NCBI GenBank assembly: GCA_964016885.1
Contig: OZ024741.1
Location: 55,304,001-55,368,000, forward strand
DNA from: Eledone cirrhosa
Lineage: Eukaryota
Reading direction: 5' to 3'
DNA: 64,000 bases
Positions 48,487 through 64,000 of the stretch are shown in pieces. Below the pieces are notes generated by a model. The model was not told where the DNA came from and ran no database searches. It saw only the letters and a list, made by a program, of their open reading frames with translations. The first letter of the stretch is position 1, and each line of letters begins with the position of its first letter. The translations under genes and the position numbers were made by a program.

Positions 48487-49000
48487 ATAACGAAGGAAAT
48501 GTGGTCAGGAACCAGGTGGACCATAACGCACCAAAGTACTCAATACTTAGGGTAGTACAGTGGGTAATAGGAACAAGTAAGACCCTTACTTGTTCCTATA
48601 TATATATATATATATATAACGAAGGAATTGTGGTAAGGAAACAGATGGAACATAACGCACCAGAGTACTCAATACTTAGGGTAGTAGAGTGGGAAATAGG
48701 AAAAAGTATGACCCCGACGGCAGAGCTCAAGCCGTTTCAACGGCTATTTCTGGACGAGTCCAGAAATAGCCGTCGAACCTTTTTCATATATATATATATA
48801 TGTGTGTGTGTGTGGGAAAAGAGTCAGAACCCCGATGGCTGAGCTTCGACCATTGCGACAGCTCTAAACTAGCTGTCGCCACGGTCTGAGCTCAGCCGTC
48901 CGGCCCTAACTCTTTTCGTATTACCCACTCTACTACCCAGAGTACCGAGTACTCCGGTGCATTATGCTCCACCTGGTTCCTTATCACACTTCCTTCGTTA
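48487..49000. mobile_element. Three diverged copies of a short (TA)n-anchored element (ataacgaaggaa...gggtagtagagtgggtaata), each ending in a fold-back hairpin; probable PLE 3'-end fragments
   Basis: Copies at ~48487-48600 (+), ~48617-48786 (+) and ~48812-49000 (-). Hairpins: ataggaacaagtaa/ttacttgttcctat; cggctatttctggac/gtccagaaatagccg; ggctgagct..gcgacagct/agctgtcgc..agctcagcc. Confidence 0.65.
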
Positions 49001-50009: not shown

Positions 50010-50487
50010 ATTAAATAAATGGAAAACTATATTTATAAAACCATATTTATTTCATTATATATATTTCGGGGATATCATATTAACAATATGCTATGCCTTC
50101 ATCAGACAAAATACAATATAAACAGTTTTATAGATAAATATATTCGACATACCGTAATAAACATCAACTTCATTTGAAGAGGTTCACTCTAGCAGTGAAA
50201 ATACAGAGAGAAAGAAAGAGAGAGAGAAAAGAGGGAAATAGGAAAGAAAGAAAGACAAAACGAAGAAAAGGAAGAAAAAGAAGAAAAAGAAAAAGAAGAA
50301 ATGCATGGGACAAAATAGAGAGATGGAAAGATAGATAAAGCGAAGAGCTTCATGTAAAGAGACAGAAAGAGATATATATATATAGAGAGAGAGAGAGAGG
50401 AAGTAGAGATAGATACATATATAAATATAGATATAGAAAAATTAGGTAGTGGGAGGTCAATTTTGAGTAAGTGTATCAATGATGCAT

Positions 50488-50526
<39 letters not shown>

Positions 50527-51593
50527 GCTCAAGTATTAATGTAAGGGAGATATATAGAGAGATATAGAGAGATATAGAGAGAGAAAAAATTTAAAAATAG
50601 CCAGACATATTCGAGGCGTAGAAAACCCTATGTTTTAATGTATTAGTATTTATAAAACTTACACTATATTGTAAATATCAGTATTCCTGAATGAAACAAG
50701 TATTCACAATGCGTGAAAATTCATTATCTTATGTTTAGTTTTTTAAAAACTTCATATGTCTATGTGAATCCAACTGATTCACTCCGCAAATTCAAAGTTA
50801 CCGGAAAACATTCTCAATGTGGTATAAAAATTTGAGCGTATTATTATTCTTGCGATTACTCTACTAGATTATCTATCAAGCAGAAATAGAGAGCATATTT
50901 CAATATACTAATCGAAAATATATATTATATTATAAGCAGAGATAACAATAATAATGATAATAAGTAAAAATATATAAAAAAAAAATATATAAAAATATAG
51001 AATAGAAAACTAAAAAAGAATATTACGAAAGAATATTACATAATAAAAATATTGCATATTAAAAATACTACGTATTAAAAATATTCCGTATTAAAACTTT
51101 ACATATAAAAATATTAAAAATAAAAATTTACATATAAAAATATTAATAAAATAAAAATATTATAGAATACTACAATACTAAAAGAATAAAAATAAAAATA
51201 AAAATAAAAATAAAAATAAAAATAAAAATAAAAATAAAAATAAAAATAAAAATAAAGATAAAAATAAAAATAAAAAATAAAAATAAAAATAAAAATGAAA
51301 ATAAAAATAAACCACAAAGAACAACCCTTCAAAGTTAATTGACAATATATTGCCAAGTTCACTACAAGACAAAGCCAAAAATTATCTATCAAATCACATC
51401 TAGCAAGGAATATCGCAAAAAAAGATTATGATGTCCAATAATGTCTACATATGTTCCTATATTTAATATATAAGTTTATCAAGTGTAAGGTTAATTCAAA
51501 AAATTTGGAGCATCGGCTTTTAGGGTAGCTTAATTTTTCATGAGGAATGTTTAGATAAAAATAAAAATAAAAATAAAAATAAAAATAAAAATA
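50004..51593 (-). repeat. Left arm: 3' UTR/pLTR of the PLE, sense on the minus strand
   Basis: Reverse complement of 53168-54772. Mirrored spurious ORFs (50189..50479- vs 54297..54587+; 51114..51392- vs 53368..53658+) confirm it. Confidence 0.93.
50048..50113 (-). ncRNA. Hammerhead ribozyme in the PLE pLTR (family B), minimal palindromic stem III
   Basis: Reverse complement of the 54663-54728 motif with one stem II mismatch. Confidence 0.78.
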
Positions 51594-51707
51594 AAAATAA
51601 ATAAAATAAAATAAACAATAAAAAGAGTAAAAAGAGGGAATAAAAGATTTAGGAATCAAAAGATTTATCGGCTAGTTCTCATATAAATATAAATCAAACT
51701 AAATATA

Positions 51708-53160
51708 CTACATTTTAAATTTAGATTTATATTTAAACGTTGAGTTTAATCTATGTTTGCAACAACTGAATAAATTTGTCCGTAGGTTAAGGGAATTTTT
51801 AGATTTTAGTATAAAGAATATCTCCTCTGCGCAGAGGTCACATGTCTCAGAGGATGAATTAAAAGGAATCCCTCTTGAGACTATATTCCAAGCCGTCGAA
51901 TATCTAACGTTATCTAGCTTAAGTTGCCAGAGTACACCTGATAGTGCCGTTGAAGATTTTTTATTTGGATCTGTGAAAGAATTCTTGTGGTTATTATAGC
52001 GAAGTTTAAATTCCGTCGATGTGGAACCGACGTAGTTAAAAGAATTAGAGTCAGTATTAACATTACAATTGTATACTATATTTTTAACTAAGCAGTTGTT
52101 ATTTAACGGACATTTAGATCTATCTCTACAGTTACATTTGTTAACTTGTATATTATTTATGCTATTATCAGTAGGTTTTAAGTTCCTATTATTTATTCTA
52201 TTAATATTTTGTGCTAAATTTTTGGTGGATGAGTAGGTTAATTTAATTGTATGCCTATTGAAGATTGAGTGGTACCTGTGTGTTCTAGGGAAGCGATTAT
52301 CAAGAGCTTTGAAAAATAATTTAGCGATGTGGGTTTTAATGTTTAGTGAGAAAGGGGGGGGGGGGGGCAAACCAAATTATGTTCCTAGTTCTATTTCTTT
52401 TTTGTCCTTTGGAATTATTGTAATGCTTTCTATTATAGTTGTTAATGTTGTTGCCGTCAATAGAAAAGTTGTTACTTTGTTTAGTTTGTTTATCATTATC
52501 TATGTACACAATCTTATCAGCATACCCTGCCCTAGCTAGTGCATCATTATAGTATTGGGCCTTTTCGTCAAAAATCTTTCTATTCGACGAGATCCTAGAG
52601 ATACGTTTTTGGACTGAGTTTACTATAGTCTTTTTGACAGATCTGGGGTGGTTAGAGTTAAAGTTGACATAGTTTAAGTTTTCATTCAACTTGTGAAAAG
52701 GATAGTGGAGACATGTGTTGAGATTTAATGTTATATCTAGGAAATTGACTATTCTATGGTTGTTCTCAATTTCTATTTTAAGGTTAAAGTAATTAAAAAA
52801 TTTTGTAATTTGTTTACATTTTCTATTTAGTTCAGGATTATTATTATTAATAAGTAAAAGCATGTCATCCCTATATAAACCTCCGGTAGTACCAGGTATT
52901 TTCCTATGTAGCGAATTGATTAAAAATAAGCCCACAAGGTCAGTTACCTGAGCTGAGTCGGAAGATCCCATAGTTATGTCAAAATTGCTATCTCTATCTG
53001 CTCTAGTCCATAATTTGTCATCAAATTCTATCAAAGTTTTCCTAGCCGATAATATAATATGCATTTCTTTGCTAGTTAGGTCCGTATGTTTGAATGCGTA
53101 ATTTAGTGCCTTATTTAGTAGACTAGGGGTAATAGAAGAATAATAGTTAGCTATATCATA
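51708..53160 (-). pseudogene. PLE polyprotein: reverse transcriptase (from motif A on), thumb, Cys-rich linker and GIY-YIG endonuclease; N-terminus missing, frameshift in the C14 run at 52354-52367
   Basis: In frame upstream of ORF 52336..53064 reads YDIANYYSSI (RT motif A, from 53160), then ITMGSSDSAQVTDLVG, GLYRDD, NFLDITL and NSNHP. ORF 51708..52370 has CNCRDRSKCPLNNNC, NIVY...YVGST..FKLRYNNH, CDLCAEE and SLNLR (GIY-YIG motifs). Confidence 0.93.
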
Positions 53161-53167
53161 TATATAT

Positions 53168-54245
53168 ATTTTTATTTTTATTTTTATTTTTATTTTTATT
53201 TTTATCTAAACATTCCTCATGAAAAATTAAGCTACCCTAAAAGCCGATGCTCCAAATTTTTTGAATTAACCTTACACTTGATAAACTTATATGTTAAATA
53301 TAGGAACATATGTAGACATTATTGGACATCATAATCTTTTTTTGCGATATTCCTTGCTAGATGTGATTTGATAGATAATTTTTGGCTTTGTCTTGTAGTG
53401 AACTTGGCAATATATTGTCAATTAACTTTGAAGGGTTGTTCTTTGTGGTTTATTTTTATTTTCATTTTTATTTTTATTTTTATTTTTTATTTTTATTTTT
53501 ATTTTTATTTTTATTTTTATTTTTATTTTTATTTTTATTTTTATTTTTATTTTTATTTTTATTTTTATTTTTATTTTTATTTTTATTCTTTTAGTATTGT
53601 AGTATTCTATAATATTTTTATTTTATTAATATTTTTATATGTAAATTTTTATTTTTAATATTTTTATATGTAAAGTTTTAATACGTAATATTTTTAATAC
53701 GTAGTATTTTTAATATGCAATATTTTTATTATGTAATATTCTTTCGTAATATTCTTTTTTAGTTTTCTATTCTATATTTTTATATATTTTTTTTTTATAT
53801 ATTTTTACTTATTATCATTATTATTGTTATCTCTGCTTATAATATAATATATATTTTCGATTAGTATATTGAAATCTGCTCTCTATTTCTGCTTGATAGA
53901 TAATCTAGTAGAGTAATCGCAAGAATAATAATACGCTCAAATTTGTATACCACATTGAGAATGTTTTCCGGTAACTTTGAATTTGCGGAGTGAATCAGTT
54001 GGATTCACATAGACATATGAAGTTTTTAAAAAACTAAACATAAGATAATGAATTTTCACGCATTGTGAATACTTGTTTCATTCAGGAATACTGATATTTA
54101 CAATATAGTGTAAGTTTTATAAATACTAATACATTAAAACATAGGGTTTTCTACGCCTCGAATATGTCTGGCTATTTTTAAATTTCTTCTCTCTCTATAT
54201 CTCTCTATATCTCTCTATATATCTCCCTTACATTAATACTTGAGC

Positions 54246-54288
<43 letters not shown>

Positions 54289-54860
54289 ATGCATCATTGA
54301 TACACTTACTCAAAATTGACCTCCCACTACCTAATTTTTCTATATCTATATTTATATATGTATCTATCTCTACTTCCTCTCTCTCTCTATATATATATAT
54401 ATATATCTTTCTGTCTCTTTACATGAAGCTCTTCGCTTTATCTATCTTTCCATCTCTCTATTTTGTCCCATGCATTTCTTCTTTTTCTTTTTCTTCTTTT
54501 TCTTCCTTTTCTTCGTTTTGTCTTTCTTTCTTTCCTATTTCCCTCTTTTCTCTCTCTCTTTCTTTCTCTCTGTATTTTCACTGCTAGAGTGAACCTCTTC
54601 AAATGAAGTTGATGTTTATTACGGTATGTCGAATATATTTATCTATAAAACTGTTTATATTGTATTTTGTCTGATGAAGGCATAGCATATTGTTAATATG
54701 CTATCCCCGAAATATATATAATGAAATAAATATGGTTTTATAAATATAGTTTTCCATTTATTTAATATTGTAAATATACTCCAAGTATTTGTCGAGTGCT
54801 TTTATATCAGTTATAAATATTTACTAGTTGTAACCCAACAATTTTAAATATAACTTTACA
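53168..54860 (+). repeat. Right arm: inverted 3' UTR/pLTR of the PLE, with ~90 nt of extra 3' tail (54773-54860)
   Basis: Matches the left arm apart from a handful of substitutions and microsatellite lengths. The extra tail is homologous to 59470-59570(-). Confidence 0.93.
54663..54728 (+). ncRNA. Hammerhead ribozyme in the PLE pLTR (family B), minimal palindromic stem III
   Basis: tattttgt-CTGATGA-aggc atagcatatt gtt aatatgctat cccc-GAAA-tatata-TA-atgaaata; 8-bp stem I with two GU pairs and a 10-bp perfect helix in stem II. Confidence 0.82.
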
Positions 54861-55206: not shown

Positions 55207-55335
55207 TTTCATTTATCGTTTTCGGTGCGCCCAGCCGACTAAACTCACTCGATATGCAAATTAGGCTGCTCAGCCGTTAATATGTATAAGGAAAGTATTT
55301 ACTTTCAGACGTTCAACCATCTGGCAGGAAGGTAT

Positions 55336-55378
55336 ACGATGCTGACGATAGCTAATAAGCTTGAAACTAGTACATCGT
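55336..55378 (+). ncRNA. Minimal type I hammerhead ribozyme (family C), GUA site, within a ~290-bp element (~55211-55500)
   Basis: acgatg-CTGACGA-tagct aata agctt-GAAA-ctag-TA-catcgt; stem I extended by gttcaac/gttgaac and caggaa/ttcctg. The first pair of stem II is a U-U mismatch. Confidence 0.8.
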
Positions 55379-55783
55379 TCCTGTGTCAGTGTTGAACAAA
55401 AGGTGACGTGGTTGCCTAAACACTGTACGGCGTAATTCGGGCTGTTTGTTTGTTTACAAACAAACAAACCGAGCATTATAATAAATGTTCGGTAAACCGA
55501 TACGTGCATATATATATGCGTGCATGTATGTATATATATACATACTACTGTACATCTGTAAACATATATGTATGTACGTATACATACATACATACATACA
55601 TACTTACATTTAAGTAACTGCCGTACTAAGAGTGAGAAATGAAATTTCGTTTCATTCTATTCCATATATATATATATAAAGATTTACATATACACAAACT
55701 AGACAAAGTCACAGATATATATGTTTCGGCAACCATTCACGATATGGCTCAATGATGAATTAATAAATTAAATAATCAGAGCA

Positions 55784-56593
55784 ATATACTATAAAGTATG
55801 TCCATAGAATCATTTTATAATATATATACACCATTTCCTCTCCCAATTAGTATAATTAACCACACAAAAAATCAATTCAACCAGGCTATAAGATCAAAAG
55901 GCACCTATGAAGAAATAGTAGATAAATAAACGACAGCAATCTATTCGCGACCAACCGCCATAGAATATTTACCCAACATTTCAATAGCACGTGGAGTGGG
56001 CTGGTTGCTAGAAAGCGCAGCCCAATATTGCCCAAATTGCATCTCGACCTTATGGGAGATTATTAAATATAAAGATTTACATATAGCAACCAGCCCACTC
56101 ACCGTAAGCAACCAATCACATTCTTTCTGACTTGACCACTGCCACGTCACAGTTCTTAGCCATTTTGAATTCGTTTCTGGCGGGGATCACTTAAGAAAAT
56201 TCTTTGTCCAAATGAGTTTGTTTCCTGATGAGTTCGAAGCTCGAGATTTTATCCTTAATAGGATATTTCCGAAAGCAAACGAAACCCTAAGGGTAGAAAC
56301 GTAAACCTGGTATGTGTATATGCATTTTTTCTTCTAACTTTAATTTTATACCTAATTGTGTATGGTTGACGGTATATTTAATCGATTTCCACGTGCTATT
56401 GAAATGTTGGGTAAATATTCTATAGCGGTTGGTCGCGAATAGATTGCTGTCGTTTATTTATCTACTATTTCTTCGTAGGTGCCTTTTAATATTATAGCCT
56501 GGTCTAATTGATTTTTTGTGTGGTTAATTATGCTAATTGGGAGAGGAAATGGTGTATATATTTATCAAATGATTCTATGGACATACTTTATAG

Positions 56594-56598
<5 letters not shown>
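55784..56598. mobile_element. Non-coding fold-back element, family D: ~210-bp inverted arms around a ~390-bp spacer that contains a hammerhead
   Basis: 55784-55995 is the reverse complement of 56388-56598 with modest divergence; the right end runs into (TA)n. Confidence 0.85.
56220..56300 (+). ncRNA. Type I hammerhead ribozyme (family D), long stem II, GUA site at 56293-56295
   Basis: gtttc-CTGATGA-gtt...tatcct taat aggata...aac-GAAA-ccc taa ggg-TA-gaaac. Confidence 0.82.
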
Positions 56599-56630
<32 letters not shown>

Positions 56631-57064
56631 TTATATATATTATTACACGCTTAAACCTACACACAAACAATTTCCTATATCAGTCATGTTGCTACAGTAA
56701 AAAGTTCACATTCCACACACAAGTTCCTGAGTTCTAACTCTACATTTGTCCCTGTAATTAGTTATTTCTCCAGTGTTACTCATACATCTAATCCCCCATG
56801 TCGTACATATATGCTGAATGTTTGTGCTCTTCAATCCTAGAAATAAATTATTAAAATATCTTTAATCGCCTCACACGTCATTAATCAACAGAAACAATTC
56901 TGTTATGCAAAACATAAATTTATCTAAACGCAAATTTCTAAGTTTGTATGCTTGTTCATCCCAGTAACCCTTGTATATATGGCATATCAAAACCGGACTA
57001 AGAATATTTTAAACATCCGATATTACTTTTGTAATTATTGAGGGCAGTGGTTCACTACTACAGA

Positions 57065-57480
57065 TTCTTCTTCTTCAATTTATTTTTGAGAGTGTCTTGG
57101 GGGCAGAGTCCTCAAACACCACTTCCAGTGGGTCCTGTCAGAACAAACAGTCTCCATGTTGATCCGGCTGGATCCGCAAGCGAGACCAGACAAGCTCATG
57201 GATGTTCTCCAACCATATTGCTCGGTGTCTACCCCTGGGTCTCCTGCTAGTTGATTTTACCCCAATAATCTGTCAAGCGATTCCTTCCTGAGACATTCTA
57301 ACCACATGCCCATAGTAGTATAGCTATGATCTCTCAATTCGGAGACTGAGGGACTCTACCTGGAGTGACTCTCTAATCTCCAAGCTACAAATCTGTCTAG
57401 CGATTCTTTCCTTAGACATTCTGATCATATGCCCATAATATCGAAGTTGTAATCTCTCAATTCAGAGAAGTAGCGGCTCT
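57065..57480 (-). mobile_element. Degenerate 3' end of an RTE-clade LINE with (GAA)n tail, plus an adjacent second diverged fragment
   Basis: Minus-strand translation SLEIRESLQVESLSLRIERS*LYYYGHVVRMSQEGIA*QIIGVKSTSRRPRGRHRAIWLENI matches the RTE C-terminal GHV.RM...RPRGRP..RW pattern. 57390-57480 gives EPLLL*IERLQLRYYGHMIRMSKERIARQI. Tail is ttcttcttcttc at 57065. Confidence 0.85.
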
Positions 57481-57778
57481 CTTATTAAATACAAAGTTTG
57501 AAATCGTTAGATGAGAATTTTATTAAGTGTTTCTCTCGTCTGCTAAACAAATGTGTTATTCGCCTTTTTTTTGTTTAATTCTTTCAGACTTAAAACCAAA
57601 GCACCGAATATTTTTGAGATGTGCATACTAAATATACTATATATGTCACTTAGATGAACTTGACGGCTCTAAACCTAATGATGGCTCTGGAACAGCTGAC
57701 CTATCATGACTCCAGTCTTATTGAGCAAGAAGTCTTAGATGAACAGAATTTACATTGCTTGTTATATACATGTAAATA

Positions 57779-57816
<38 letters not shown>

Positions 57817-58069
57817 AGGATAAAAAGGACGATTGATTATTCCTTCATTGCATTTATTGATAGGTGACGCGCGTTTCGCCACTGATCAGCTCAAGGTTCG
57901 ATCTATATCGATTCTACCCGACTCAATAATCCGCAGCTCGACGGACCTTCTTAAAATGCTATAAGAAAACGAAATACATGCGATGTGATAAAGTCAGATA
58001 TTCAAGAGTTTGACAAAATTAGTTGTTTTGATTGGTGGGAAGGATCAAGGCGATGTACTGGCCTGTAGT

Positions 58070-59340
58070 GTATATGGGGGTGGGTGTGATGGTGAGATGT
58101 TGGTGACGATGGGTGGATGAGATGGGCTGTGGTGTGGTGGTGGTTGGTTGGCCTTGGTGTGTAGAGTATGTAGGGGTAGATGTTATGATATGGTGGTGGT
58201 TATGGTTGCTTAGTGGGATGGGCTGTGGTATGAGGTTAGTGGATTGTCAGTAGACGGGTTGGGTGTGTGTGGGGGTGTTGTATTGGTGCCGCTGTCTATG
58301 GTAGTGGCGTTTGTGGTGGTGTGGCAGATGTATTGGTGGCGTCAAGGTCATTACCTAGATACATAGTTAGATGCTCATCGTCTGACAGATGCTTTGTATA
58401 TACGTATACGCACACACATATAGGTATATATGTGCACATATATTGTTGTATAAACACACCCACCACAAAACACATACTCGCATTCTTGCCCACACATATC
58501 GACACACGCTCACACACAGCCATATGTATATGTACACACATGTATGTGCGTGTGCGCATGCGGACACAAATATGGAGAGTGGGGGAGTATCGTTGGTTGT
58601 GGCGAACGACGGAGATGGGGGGAAGGTGAGAGGCAATGTAGAAGGTGTTTTACATATATACATACCCATACACACATATGGGTATGGGCACATGGACTCA
58701 CTCTCACGTATACAAAATATACACATACACACTCACACACACGTATACCCACGCACATATATACACATACATATATATACACACACATATATACATATAC
58801 ATATATATATATATATGTACATACATATACACACACACATGTACAGACAACACACAGATATACACGCACATATACACATACATGCACGCACATGAGCTCA
58901 CCTACACATATAGTCAGATTCACCCATATACATATATGTAGACGTGCACATATACACACACATACATATATACACACACACATACACATACGCATACACA
59001 TACACATATATATACATATACGTACCCACACATACACACATGTATACACCTGCGCTCACATACACACACACACATACAATAACTATGCGTACACGCACGC
59101 ACACTCATACGTCCGTATGTGTAAGAATACTTACACACCGACACACACGCTATTGTTGGTTGGGGAGTGGGGGTATGTGCTGTCGGTGTTGGGGAAGTAT
59201 GGAGTTGTGTCTTGTGGTGGTGGTGGTGGAGTTGTGAGGGACAAAAATATATATACAAGATCGAATACCGGTTAGAAGGTGTTTATGGACGTACGGCGAT
59301 GTGTGTTGTGGACATGGTGATGGTGGTGGTGCTGGGGTGA
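58070..59340. repeat. Degenerate low-complexity region: alternating G/T-rich blocks and (CA/TA)-rich blocks
   Basis: Direct reading; accounts for the many H/T/Y/I and C/V/M-rich spurious ORFs. Confidence 0.8.
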
Positions 59341-59381
59341 TATGTTCGACAAGATGATTACATGATCAGAGGTTACCCCCT

Positions 59382-59456
<75 letters not shown>

Positions 59457-59469
59457 TATATATAGATAT

Positions 59470-59690
59470 GTAGGATTTGTATTTAATTTGTTGGAATTCC
59501 GACAAACATAAATGTTTATAACTGATATAGAGCACTCAACAAATTACTGGAGTAAATATTCCAAGATGATAATAAATGGAAACTATATTTGCAAAACCAT
59601 ATTTATTTTATTATATATATTTCAAGGGCAACCAAGCAAATCTTGGTGCGCTTTCATCAGATAAAATACAAAATTTGTTTTATAAACAAT
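59470..59690 (-). mobile_element. Solo diverged PLE pLTR 3' end (family B relative) ending in (TA)n
   Basis: Reverse complement aligns by eye with 54640-54860 (e.g. gagtgctctatatcagttataaa vs gagtgcttttatatcagttataaa). Confidence 0.8.
59604..59668 (-). ncRNA. Hammerhead ribozyme (family B variant) with a re-written stem II
   Basis: tattttat-CTGATGA-aagcgc accaag atttg cttggt tgccctt-GAAA-tatata-TA-ataaaata; perfect 8-bp stem I. Confidence 0.82.
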
Positions 59691-59743
59691 GACATACCCA
59701 TGGAAATCACACCTTAACGGTCCGAAAATTCGATGGATAGTGG

Positions 59744-59779
<36 letters not shown>

Positions 59780-59839
59780 GTGTACATATTAAACGTAATG
59801 AGCTGTGTGGTTACTGTAAACAAAGTTTAAAATGGTAAT

Positions 59840-60086
59840 ATGGACGAAACAAGGCAAGAAATCCTTCATCAGCTGCAAACCAAGATGTTTCGGCGCTTAA
59901 TAGAGAGAGCGCCAAAACATCTATGATCTCGGTTTACAGCTGATGAAGGACTTCTTCCCTTGTTTCGTCCATTTAATTAAATTTCGTTTCGTTTGTAACT
60001 CACTTTTGTATGACTGACGCTTAAACAATTAAGTTAAAAATGTACAGTCATACAAAAGTGAGTTACAAACGAAACGAAATTTAATT
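59840..60086. repeat. Two abutting inverted repeats: an imperfect ~130-bp fold-back (59840-59972) and perfect 42-bp arms (59975-60016 / 60045-60086)
   Basis: atggacgaaacaagg/ccttgtttcgtccat and ccttcatcagctg/cagctgatgaagg; aattaaatttcgtttcgtttgtaactcacttttgtatgactg and its exact reverse complement. Confidence 0.88.
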
Positions 60087-60234
60087 TCGTTTCGTTATTT
60101 GTTTTTATCGTCTCCGTTGAACCGGTACGTACTCACACTCTATGCAAATTAGTCTGCCCACTACTAATTTTCATAGAAAAAGCATATAACGATATGTGCT
60201 TTTACGATTCTCCAGAAAGGCCGGAAGATAGGTA

Positions 60235-60279
60235 AATATTGCTGATGAGTTGTAACAACAACGAAACTAGTTCAATATT
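60235..60279 (+). ncRNA. Minimal type I hammerhead ribozyme (family C), GUU site, within a ~300-bp element (~60100-60400)
   Basis: aatattg-CTGATGA-gttgt aaca acaac-GAAA-ctag-TT-caatatt; perfect stems I and II; stem I extended by attctccagaaag/ctttctggagaat. Confidence 0.88.
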
Positions 60280-60494
60280 CCTTGTCTGGCTTTCTGGAGA
60301 ATAGAGGAAAGGTGTTTCCTCAAAAACCAGTATGACTCTAAAAACCGGTTTGTCTGTGTGTTTACATACAGAATAGCTGGACACTCACAGTAAAGTGACC
60401 AGTGAAAAACTTGGTACATCTACATATGTATACGTGTGTGTATTCATATGCATACTAGTATTTCAGTATACATATGTGGATGTACATTTTTAAC

Positions 60495-60539
<45 letters not shown>

Positions 60540-61471: not shown

Positions 61472-64000
61472 CATACATTAGTATATAGAGTACATACATT
61501 AGAATATACAATACATACAATAGTATATAGAGTACATACATTAGAATATACAATACATACAATAGTATATAGAGTACATACATTAGAATATACAATACAT
61601 ACATTAGTATATAGAGTACATACATTAGAATATACAATACATACAATAGTATATAGAGTACATACATTAGAATATACAATACATACAATAGTATATAGAG
61701 TACATACATTAGAATATACAATACATTCATTAGTATATAGAGTACATACATTAGAATATACAATACATACAATAGTATATATATACATACATTAGAATAT
61801 ACAATACATACATTAGTATATAGAGTACATACATTAGAATATACAATACATACAATAGTATATAGAGTACATACATTAGAATATACAATACATACATTAG
61901 TATATAGAGTACATACATTAGAATATACAATACATACATTAGTATATAGAGTACATACATTAGAATATACAATACATACAATAGTATATAGAGTACATAC
62001 ATTAGAATATACAATACATACAATAGTATATAGAGTACATACATTAGAATATACAATACATACAATAGTATATAGATAACATACATTAGAATATACAATA
62101 CATACATTAGTATATAGAGTACATACATTAGAATATACAATACATACATTAGTATATAGAGTACATACATTAGAATATACAATACATACAATAGTATATA
62201 GAATACATACATTAGAATATACAATACATACATTAGTATATAGAGTACATACATTAGAATATACAATACATACATTAGTATATAGAGTACATACATTAGA
62301 ATATACAATACATACATTAGTATATATATACATACTTTAGAATATACAATACATACAATAGTATATAGAGTACATACATTAGAATATACAATACATACAT
62401 TAGTATATAGAGTACATACATTAGAATATACAATACATACATTCGTATATATATACATACATTAGAATATACAATACATACATTAGTATATAGGGTACAT
62501 ACATTAGAATATACAATACATACAATAGTATATAGAGTACATACAGTAGAATATACAATACATACAATAGTATATAGAGTACATACAGTAGAATATACAA
62601 TACATACATTAGTATATAGAGTACATACATTAGAATATACAATACATACATTAGTATATAGAGTACATACATTAGAATATACAATACATACATTAGTATA
62701 TAGAGTACATACATTAGAATATACAATACATACATTAGTATATAGAGTACATACATTAGAATATACAATACATACAATAGTATATATATATACATACATT
62801 AGAATATACAATACATACAATAGTATATAGAGTACATACAGTAGAATATACAATACATACATTCGTATATATATACATACATTAGAATATACAATACATA
62901 CATTAGTATATAGAGTACATACATTAGAATATACAATACATACATTAGTATATAGAGTACATACATTAGAATATACAATACATACATTAGTATATAGAGT
63001 ACATACATTAGAATATACAATACATACAATAGTATATATATACATACATTAGAATATACAATACATACAATAGTATATAGAGTACATACAGTAGAATATA
63101 CAATACATACATTAGTATATAGAGTACATACATTAGAATATACAATACATACAATAGTATATATATACATACATTAGAATATACAATACATACATTAGTA
63201 TATAGAGTACATACATTAGAATATACAATACATACATTCGTATATATATACATACATTAGAATATACAATACATACATTAGTATATAGAGTACATACATT
63301 AGAATATACAATACATACATTAGTATATAGAGTACATACATTAGAATATACAATACATACAATAGTATATATATACATACATTAGAATATACAATACATA
63401 CAATAGTATATAGAGTACATACAGTAGAATATACAATACATACATTAGTATATAGAGTACATACATTAGAATATACAATACATACATTAGTATATAGAGT
63501 ACATACATTAGAATATACAATACATACATTCGTATATATATACATACATTAGAATATACAATACATACAATAGTATATAGAGTACATACAGTAGAATATA
63601 CAATACATACATTAGTATATAGAGTACATACATTAGAATATACAATACATACAATAGTATATAGAGTACATACATTAGAATATACAATACATACATTAGT
63701 ATATAGAGTACATACATTAGAATATACAATACATACATTCGTATATATATACATACTTTAGAATATACAATACATACATTCGTATATATATACATACTTT
63801 AGAATATACAATACATACAATAGTATATAGAGTACATACAGTAGAATATACAATACATACATTAGTATATAGAGTACATACATTAGAATATACAATACAT
63901 ACAATAGTATATAGAGTACATACATTAGAATATACAATACATACATTCGTATATATATACATACATTAGAATATACAATACATACAATAGTATATAGAGT
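61472..64000. repeat. 42-bp minisatellite made of two 21-bp halves (catacattagtatatagagta + catacattagaatatacaata), about 60 copies, continuing past the window
   Basis: 42-bp period with recurring 41-bp variants (tatatatata in place of tatatagagta); explains the [14 protein letters not shown] and MYVLYIL repeat ORFs. Confidence 0.95.

Follow-up and report, generated by a model that had tools for sequence, protein, structure and literature searches.

The Eledone cirrhosa genome contains a high-copy, non-coding repeat, here termed family C, which occurs in tandem and dispersed form and by its sequence belongs to the metazoan retrozymes without long terminal repeats (non-LTR retrozymes). Two copies of family C lie in a window of 64,000 nucleotides on contig OZ024741.1 (positions 55304001-55368000 of an assembly of 3.0 Gb that is rich in microsatellites), copy 1 representing family C1 and copy 2 family C2. 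With a probability of roughly 0.8 we consider family C to be a hammerhead non-LTR retrozyme that likely has a small nuclear RNA (snRNA)-type promoter in its unit, is likely cut to unit length and circularised, and is likely inserted into (TA)n in trans by Penelope-like elements (PLEs).

The hammerhead, the palindromic helix III, the idea of dimeric cleavage and the retrozyme class are already known. According to a 2020 review, metazoan retrozymes seem to have neither a promoter nor a motif naming their mobiliser (PMC7761336); a PLE origin has been argued from co-occurrence and from similarity to the pseudo-LTRs (pLTRs) of PLEs, with the mechanism of mobilisation listed as open (10.64898/2026.07.22.740005). 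Family C provides PLE insertion marks at nucleotide level together with a host-matched candidate promoter, both of which can be tested with a 460-nt construct. A literature search revealed no host-matched U6-type motif or two-site PLE ends for any retrozyme; most subscription papers, Repbase and key supplements were outside its reach, and the supplements of PMC7229834 and 10.64898/2026.07.22.740005 may list family C.

Copy number and unit structure

A genome search with the core pattern CTGANGA-N14-GAAACTAGTH revealed 40,100 matches versus 2 for the reversed pattern, and the tail pattern common to C1 and C2 gave 22,410 matches versus 0 in the control. DNA searches detected 782 and 1,727 first-look candidates, the top 40 showing 99-100% identity for C2 and 97-98% for C1. 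The head-to-tail repeats measure 466 bp in C2 and 422-502 bp in the C1 subfamilies, which corrects the element size of ~300 bp given by the first-pass annotation; unit length, arrays, PLE insertion signature and promoter match had all been missed there. Units are non-coding with a GC content of 0.35-0.36, and C1 and C2 are 60% identical (shuffles: 48%). Family C is found as monomers and as head-to-tail arrays of up to 31 units. The 31-unit array consists of ~466-bp units with an inverted partner and (TA)n on either side; 19 of its 30 units are distinct and variants are common to several of them. Patterns with the same helix III and other helix II lengths matched 215 times (15-30 nt) and 112 times (8-13 nt), mostly in decayed family C copies or unrelated motifs, and no third family was detected among the 100 matches listed for each.

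The unit has no LTR (primer-binding site and polypurine tract were not searched for) and closes on itself with base pairing over the junction. Predicted circles gave z=-13.0 and -9.5 against 40 shuffles each, values to which microsatellite-like palindromes contribute. Over the entire unit of 450-466 nt, C1 and C2 display the same order of hairpins despite their ~60% identity. Among the sequencing runs listed as containing family C none is an RNA run; runs X1 and X4-X6 consist of contigs of unspecified type in which neighbouring repeats are present as well. A closed contig of 496 nt from run X4 is equally compatible with a circle and with a tandem repeat and was not used.

Hammerhead fold and selection on RNA structure

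Both copies contain a type I hammerhead with an extended helix I (Table 1). In each, the core is followed by 14 nt and then by GAAACTAGT, as seen in the sequence and in the pattern scan. Helix I is formed by ACGATG/CATCGT in copy 1 and (A)ATATTG/CAATAT(T) in copy 2, helix II by AGCT/AGCT and GTTGT/ACAAC, and the distal helices by GTTCAAC/GTTGAAC (55311-55397) and ATTCTCCAGAAAG/CTTTCTGGAGAAT (60207-60302). This confirms the first-pass annotation, which had placed two hammerheads here with stems that differ in sequence yet pair. Cleavage is predicted after A55372 in copy 1, where a U.U closes helix II, and after U60272 in copy 2. The cut sites of the family (GUA, GUU, GUC) fit NUH, and the CUGANGA and GAAA core is present. 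An older C2 subfamily (L136, L170) has the GUC cut site and a GATGT/ACATC helix II.

Folding resulted in z=-6.05 for copy 2 and z=-2.32 for copy 1. Copy 2 matched Rfam Hammerhead_HH9 (RF02275) with 37.7 bits (E 2.9e-8; gathering score 52 bits), copy 1 had no Rfam hammerhead match, and an Rfam scan of the window gave no match at gathering level.

An ungapped 53-column alignment of 14 haplotypes, hand-picked from two clades and not equal to an R-scape test, showed a 3-bp outer helix, a 3-nt bulge facing an invariant U, helix I of 6 bp, helix II, and a helix III of 2 bp capped by a UA loop. Altogether 95.1% of the cells pair, compared with 30-51% in slid controls. The pair closing helix II is G-C in the four C2 haplotypes, C-G in one and a mismatch, mostly U.U in C1, in nine, so that the usual G10.1-C11.1 pair of canonical type I hammerheads is found in C2 and not overall. 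The elements had been described as fully covarying. This holds in that the named helices pair, whereas only 7 of the 16 core pairs changed on both sides, helix III shows no variation and nine of 14 haplotypes are mismatched at the helix II closing pair. The family C motif is, on sequence grounds, a canonical and not, as previously annotated, a minimal type I hammerhead, because its layout (6-bp helix I with bulged extension, helix II of ~4 bp with a 6-nt loop) fits the definitions of PMC4209133.

Stem variants were tallied in 132 segments of C1 (72 loci) and 112 of C2 (45 loci), the loci overlapping in part. Variants present in at least four loci still pair in 9 of 11 cases, compared with 10 of 26 for those in two or three loci and 14 of 57 for those confined to one locus (Fisher p=6e-4 for the first against the last class, a generous value as the loci partly overlap and are related). 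The pairing kept in widespread stem variants and the hairpin series common to both families support the selection on RNA structure that had been proposed.

Insertion ends and Penelope-like elements

Extension of C2 units in 3' direction revealed 34 read-throughs and 58 stops, ten of which were internal indels. The other 48 stops, a count including a few duplicates from overlapping loci, are located at unit positions 221-233 (site A; 29) and 298-303 (site B; 19), ~74 nt apart, and adjoin (TA)n in all but about three. Site A is the loop of a small hairpin and site B follows the GAAAC/TGAAAT hairpin. C1 insertions end at the homologous sites, with 41 ends at A and 28 at B adjoining (TA)n, 44 read-throughs and 36 unclassified rows. 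The usual insertion has one end at A and the other at B on an inverted, 5'-truncated copy, as in copy 2 and the 31-unit array. The inserts lie within (TA)n, which makes a target duplication unreadable. Their 5' truncations scatter around the unit with 0 of 51 at the hammerhead cut site, so that the template was continuous across this site, either a circle or an uncut multimer. The finding that 46 of 51 runs span the cut site is affected by a bias in the selection of loci and was set aside.

An optional tail, an inverted truncated copy and a (TA)n bias are hallmarks of PLEs (PMC8557442), and in vitro a PLE protein in purified form cleaves AT-rich DNA on both strands, two internal start sites of the reverse transcriptase (RT) bounding the tail (PMC11167929). 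Family C carries the marks of PLE mobilisation, namely a tail at one end, an inverted truncated copy, partial tandems and a microsatellite target. Intact young PLEs are present in the genome with Hydra-type 738-aa and Neptune-type 777-aa frames and many 97-100% identical copies; the Hydra-type PLE, partly located in the window, has a CxCX5C linker. Judged from the end points, insertion of family C by PLE machinery in trans is likely.

The Neptune-type PLE (L244, G000:C4:119553500-119563400) has a 4,843-bp unit with the 777-aa frame and apparently a second frame upstream. A canonical hammerhead was not seen by eye in its non-coding part.

Candidate promoter

Upstream of the hammerheads both copies share ACTCAC and the 12-mer TATGCAAATTAG, beginning at 55243 and 55253 in copy 1 and at 60131 and 60141 in copy 2. 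The 12-mer includes ATGCAAAT, which we take to be the octamer, and is followed by a TATA-like box. This box is mostly GTATATAC in C1, with GTATATACT in 77 of 98 tallied. The distance between 12-mer and box is 30 nt in C1 (96/98) and 29 nt in C2 (73/76). In host genes, TATGC[AT]AAT[TG]AG at -77 to -79 together with GTATA[AT]A at -31 was found in 7 of 27 U6 loci, from three independent sites, L264 (C5), L265 (C9) and the C19 array, and the 12-mer of L265 is identical to TATGCAAATTAG in 12 of 12 positions; the background is 2 in 574,658 positions. An insertion shifts the 12-mer to -271 in six further U6 copies of the C19 array, L278 has it at -276, and the 13 loci without it are mostly 5'-truncated or inside microsatellites. 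The MRP gene, tested after U6, has the 12-mer at -78 and a TATA box at -31. Applied to family C, the -31 or -78 rule predicts starts at 55326-55331 and 60213-60219, within the 5' strand of the extended helix I.

We put the odds at about even that 12-mer and TATA-like box are the promoter of family C, matched to that of host U6/MRP. Use of this snRNA-type promoter by Pol II would be at least as likely as by Pol III. The competing possibility, with a chance a little short of one half, is a PLE-mobilised retrozyme that has no promoter and depends on read-through transcription from its flanks, with TATGCAAATTAG retained as one arm of an RNA hairpin or as a site for protein binding. It is consistent with the absence of promoters from retrozymes in the available text of the review PMC7761336, with the frequency of TATA-like hexamers in AT-rich DNA and with a spacing to the TATA-like box unlike that of U6/MRP. 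TATGCAAATTAG forms a hairpin arm in both families and may have a role at the RNA level; however, only this 5' arm is constant whereas the 3' arm has diverged, and the octamer retains its C although this base has no partner in C2 and C1b (an A variant occurs in 3 of the 174 tallied). In addition, one C1 subfamily lost 7-8 nt directly after the TATA-like box and retained the box, and the identity with a U6 promoter element in 12 of 12 positions likewise speaks against this possibility.

Some observations concern the host genes themselves. Of 11 copies examined in the C19 U6 array (L270-L276), six carry a ~190-bp repeat inserted between 12-mer and TATA box. The octamer-containing 12-mer is found at about -78 in U6 and MRP promoters, and U2 and RNase P have a TCAGTGG element in common instead (L264-L266, L279, L249-L261, L293). 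RNase P may use a U2-like promoter. U6 promoters of the Eledone cirrhosa genome could drive guide-RNA expression in the host. Among the U6 retrocopies (L282, L283, L286, L289, L280), some lie in (TA)n or (TG)n and several are followed by GGGCGGTG-like sequence, which suggests U6-retroelement chimeras.

Independence of the units and mode of cleavage

Solo pLTRs or 3' fragments of an autonomous PLE, rather than an independently replicating retrozyme, could also produce such units, since PLE insertions are mostly 5'-truncated with hammerheads in their pLTRs, and Xenopus retrozymes are related to pLTRs (10.64898/2026.07.22.740005). The comparison with PLEs covered 7 families only. We regard this origin as unlikely: in the loci read, another unit, an inverted copy or flank is found upstream of the units; the unit joins up with itself after 422-502 bp, with pairing over the junction; and the hammerhead is canonical and differs from the PLE pLTR motifs in the window.

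The first-pass annotation had proposed obligate dimeric cleavage, with possible mixed dimers between subfamilies through the common palindrome. ACUAGU is indeed invariant in 14 of 14 haplotypes and pairs with itself at -4.8 kcal/mol. Given the strain in a 2-nt loop and the inactive pairing favoured by the nearest-neighbour fold, homodimer cleavage in arrays is plausible. Dimeric cleavage with a short palindromic helix III has been described before (PMC4209133, PMC7229834), and axolotl dimers are far more active than monomers (PMC7229834). However, an obligate dimer is not implied, as monomers of newt hammerheads with an internally looped helix I extension reportedly cleave (PMC6155905) and an axolotl motif whose helix III has 2 bp and whose helix II bears a U.U reaches 22% cleavage within one hour as a monomer (PMC7229834). 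Heterodimers would need swapped helix I strands because, in a double hammerhead, the partner of A15.1 is the U16.1 of the opposite copy. Across families these strands mismatch at 2 of 6 proximal pairs, and the predicted duplexes reach -14.5 and -10.1 kcal/mol versus -23.5 and -33.2 kcal/mol for the cognate ones. Mixed C1/C2 tandem neighbours were found in 0 of 105 pairs (some of them duplicates; one more pair was unclassified). Heterodimers between the families are thus unlikely, and cleavage confined to dimers, mixed ones included, is improbable. In the long helix I we would rather see a scaffold for tertiary contacts and a clamp for both ends of the excised unit.

A conventional satellite that unequal crossover has spread, its ribozyme a passive relic, would be in keeping with long arrays that have variants in common but is very improbable. 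Dispersed inserts number in the tens of thousands and show inversions, (TA)n targets and 3' ends at fixed points; the end-point data contradict this reading, and the subfamily changes preserve structure.

Proposed cycle

For the retrozyme reading the following cycle is proposed. 12-mer and TATA-like box would, at even odds, start transcription 11-29 nt 5' of the hammerhead core; because this start lies downstream of the promoter, only a tandem gives RNA with a promoter copy. The unit would be cut out by successive hammerheads, acting as monomers or homodimers. The extended helix I of 22-34 bp would then, rather probably, keep the cut ends together for ligation into a circle. At the target, the endonuclease/RT of a PLE would nick both (TA)n strands and prime cDNA at the fixed internal sites A and B, leaving several units in a row to one side and an inverted truncated copy to the other; the insertion signature is observed, the enzyme is a candidate. 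Finally, because units of the 31-mer have variants in common, some arrays have also been reshaped later or copied as multimers, and owing to these variants circles of family C RNA are something we infer. Both window copies, as single units, are probably end products of the cycle.

Several results weigh against parts of this reading. A clean rolling-circle origin of the 31-mer is ruled out by the variants common to its units. The predicted minimum-energy fold lacks the active helix III and favours an inactive pairing, and only one of nine predicted retrozyme dimers of Xenopus cleaved in vitro (10.64898/2026.07.22.740005). Comparison with seven PLE families (the Hydra-type of the window, the Neptune-type and five other 3' regions), out of the many more in the genome, yielded only microsatellite or E>0.3 matches to family C. 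Regarding the promoter, the distance between 12-mer and TATA-like box is 29-30 nt in family C versus 34-36 nt in U6/MRP, i.e. 5-6 nt closer. The 12-mer is absent from the RNase P and U2 upstream regions examined, and a ACCTCCCTT-like element that U2, U6 and RNase P carry around -260 to -290, as judged by eye, was not seen in family C units. Insertion 5' ends do not pile up at the predicted start. T5+ tracts (two T5 in C2, a T7 in C1b) would stop Pol III, although one C1 unit reaches no more than T4; the T5/T7 tracts occur in young, array-forming subfamilies, against Pol III read-through.

The tandem form of family C would follow if read-through into the next unit and hammerhead cuts recover the upstream promoter. 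More tentatively, family C may be a SINE (short interspersed element)-like element with a host U6/MRP-style upstream promoter that is recovered by read-through, a hammerhead that excises and circularises one permuted unit, and two structured start sites for Penelope RT. If true, it would be a retrozyme with promoter and mobilisation signals mapped to the nucleotide and a minimal PLE transposition substrate of 460 nt.

Features of the window

The two copies are separate insertions and not a single element. The window consists mostly of satellite, and 47.6-61.5 kb holds nested insertions within (TA)n. The GAGTGAG in the tail of copy 1 pairs with ACTCAC once the unit is joined.

Table 1. Positions of family C features in the window
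Feature	Position	Strand	Description
Copy 1, one unit of family C1	55207..55663	+	flanked by (TA)n tracts; 3' end is site B
TATGCAAATTAG 12-mer, copy 1	55253..55264	+	contains octamer; equals the -78 element of U6 locus L265; also hairpin 5' arm
TATA-like box, copy 1	55295..55302	+	reads GTATTTAC; 30 nt after 12-mer
Type I hammerhead with extended helix I, copy 1	55311..55397	+	core CUGACGA 55342-55348; ACUAGU 55366-55371
Small hairpin ACTTACATTTAAGT, copy 1	55602..55615	+	loop is end point A (3') of C1 insertions
'Tail' region, copy 1	55630..55663	+	GAGTGAG, GAAATGAAATTTCGTTTCATT hairpin, end point B
Partner of copy 2, inverted and 5'-truncated	59975..60046	-	contains tail
Copy 2, almost a full unit of family C2 (unit of 466 bp)	60045..60500	+	site A 3' end adjoins (TA)19
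GTGAGT, hairpin 60067-60096 and invariant TTTATCG, copy 2	60058..60110	+	site B located here
TATGCAAATTAG 12-mer, copy 2	60141..60152	+	its C unpaired in C2 hairpin yet kept
TATA-like GCATATAAC, copy 2	60182..60190	+	29 nt after 12-mer
Type I hammerhead with extended helix I, copy 2	60207..60302	+	core CUGAUGA 60242-60248; ACUAGU 60266-60271

A young Hydra-clade PLE, inserted head-to-head inverted, occupies 50010-54860, with RT and GIY-YIG fragments at 51708-53205 on the minus strand and its own hammerhead-like motif near 54673; the full element has a 4,011-bp unit, a 738-aa frame and many 99-100% identical copies. Further hammerhead-like cores in short inverted-repeat elements at 48741, 49767, 56226, 57870 (-) and 59941 are probably pLTR remnants of other PLE families. 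A 54/108-bp satellite of ~41 kb with strong strand skew extends over 6004-47610, and a 42-bp satellite over 61472-64000.

Comparison with known systems

Copy 2 aligns across all 77 positions of the Rfam model Hammerhead_HH9, including the helix I bulge and the 6-nt loop II; in contrast to this model, helix III of family C is shorter, the score is under gathering and copy 1 is unmatched. With the minimal hammerheads of PLEs (PMC4209133) family C shares the type I topology, the palindromic 15.2-16.2/loop 3 and the proposed dimers. Those motifs have a helix II of 7-8 bp and a helix I of 4-5 bp without tertiary loop (PMC4209133), whereas in family C helix I measures 6 bp and carries a bulged extension, and helix II measures 4-5 bp.

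Like PLEs of the Hydra/Neptune/Naiad clades (PMC8557442; PMC11167929), family C displays partial tandems, an inverted 5'-truncated copy, a tail at one end, (TA)n targeting and presumptive internal RT starts. Unlike these, it has no open reading frame, a tail of ~74 nt compared with 30-40, a canonical instead of a minimal hammerhead, and no sequence link to the seven PLE families tested.

Newt satellite 2 is similarly a tandem hammerhead repeat (~330 bp) with a weak palindromic helix III, and its promoter is said to contain an octamer. An internal snRNA-type Pol II promoter has been reported for it (PMC2220036, cited second-hand). In contrast, the host genes matched by the family C motif are Pol III genes (U6, MRP), host U2 being unmatched.

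The closest systems are the metazoan non-LTR retrozymes of coral, mussel and axolotl (Cervera and de la Pena 2020, PMC7229834; Li et al. 2026, 10.64898/2026.07.22.740005), with which family C was compared at the DNA level. The family C unit is at or above the top of their 150-450 bp range, its (TA)n flanks hide any target duplication, and the available text of both papers describes neither fixed two-site 3' ends nor inversions nor a promoter-like motif for those retrozymes. Family C resembles them in its short non-coding tandems of <50% GC, one canonical type I hammerhead per unit, a highly self-paired predicted circle, forms from monomers to long arrays and PLEs in the same genome. In axolotl HHR_Amex2, too, a U.U sits at the base of helix II and helix III spans 2 bp (PMC7229834).

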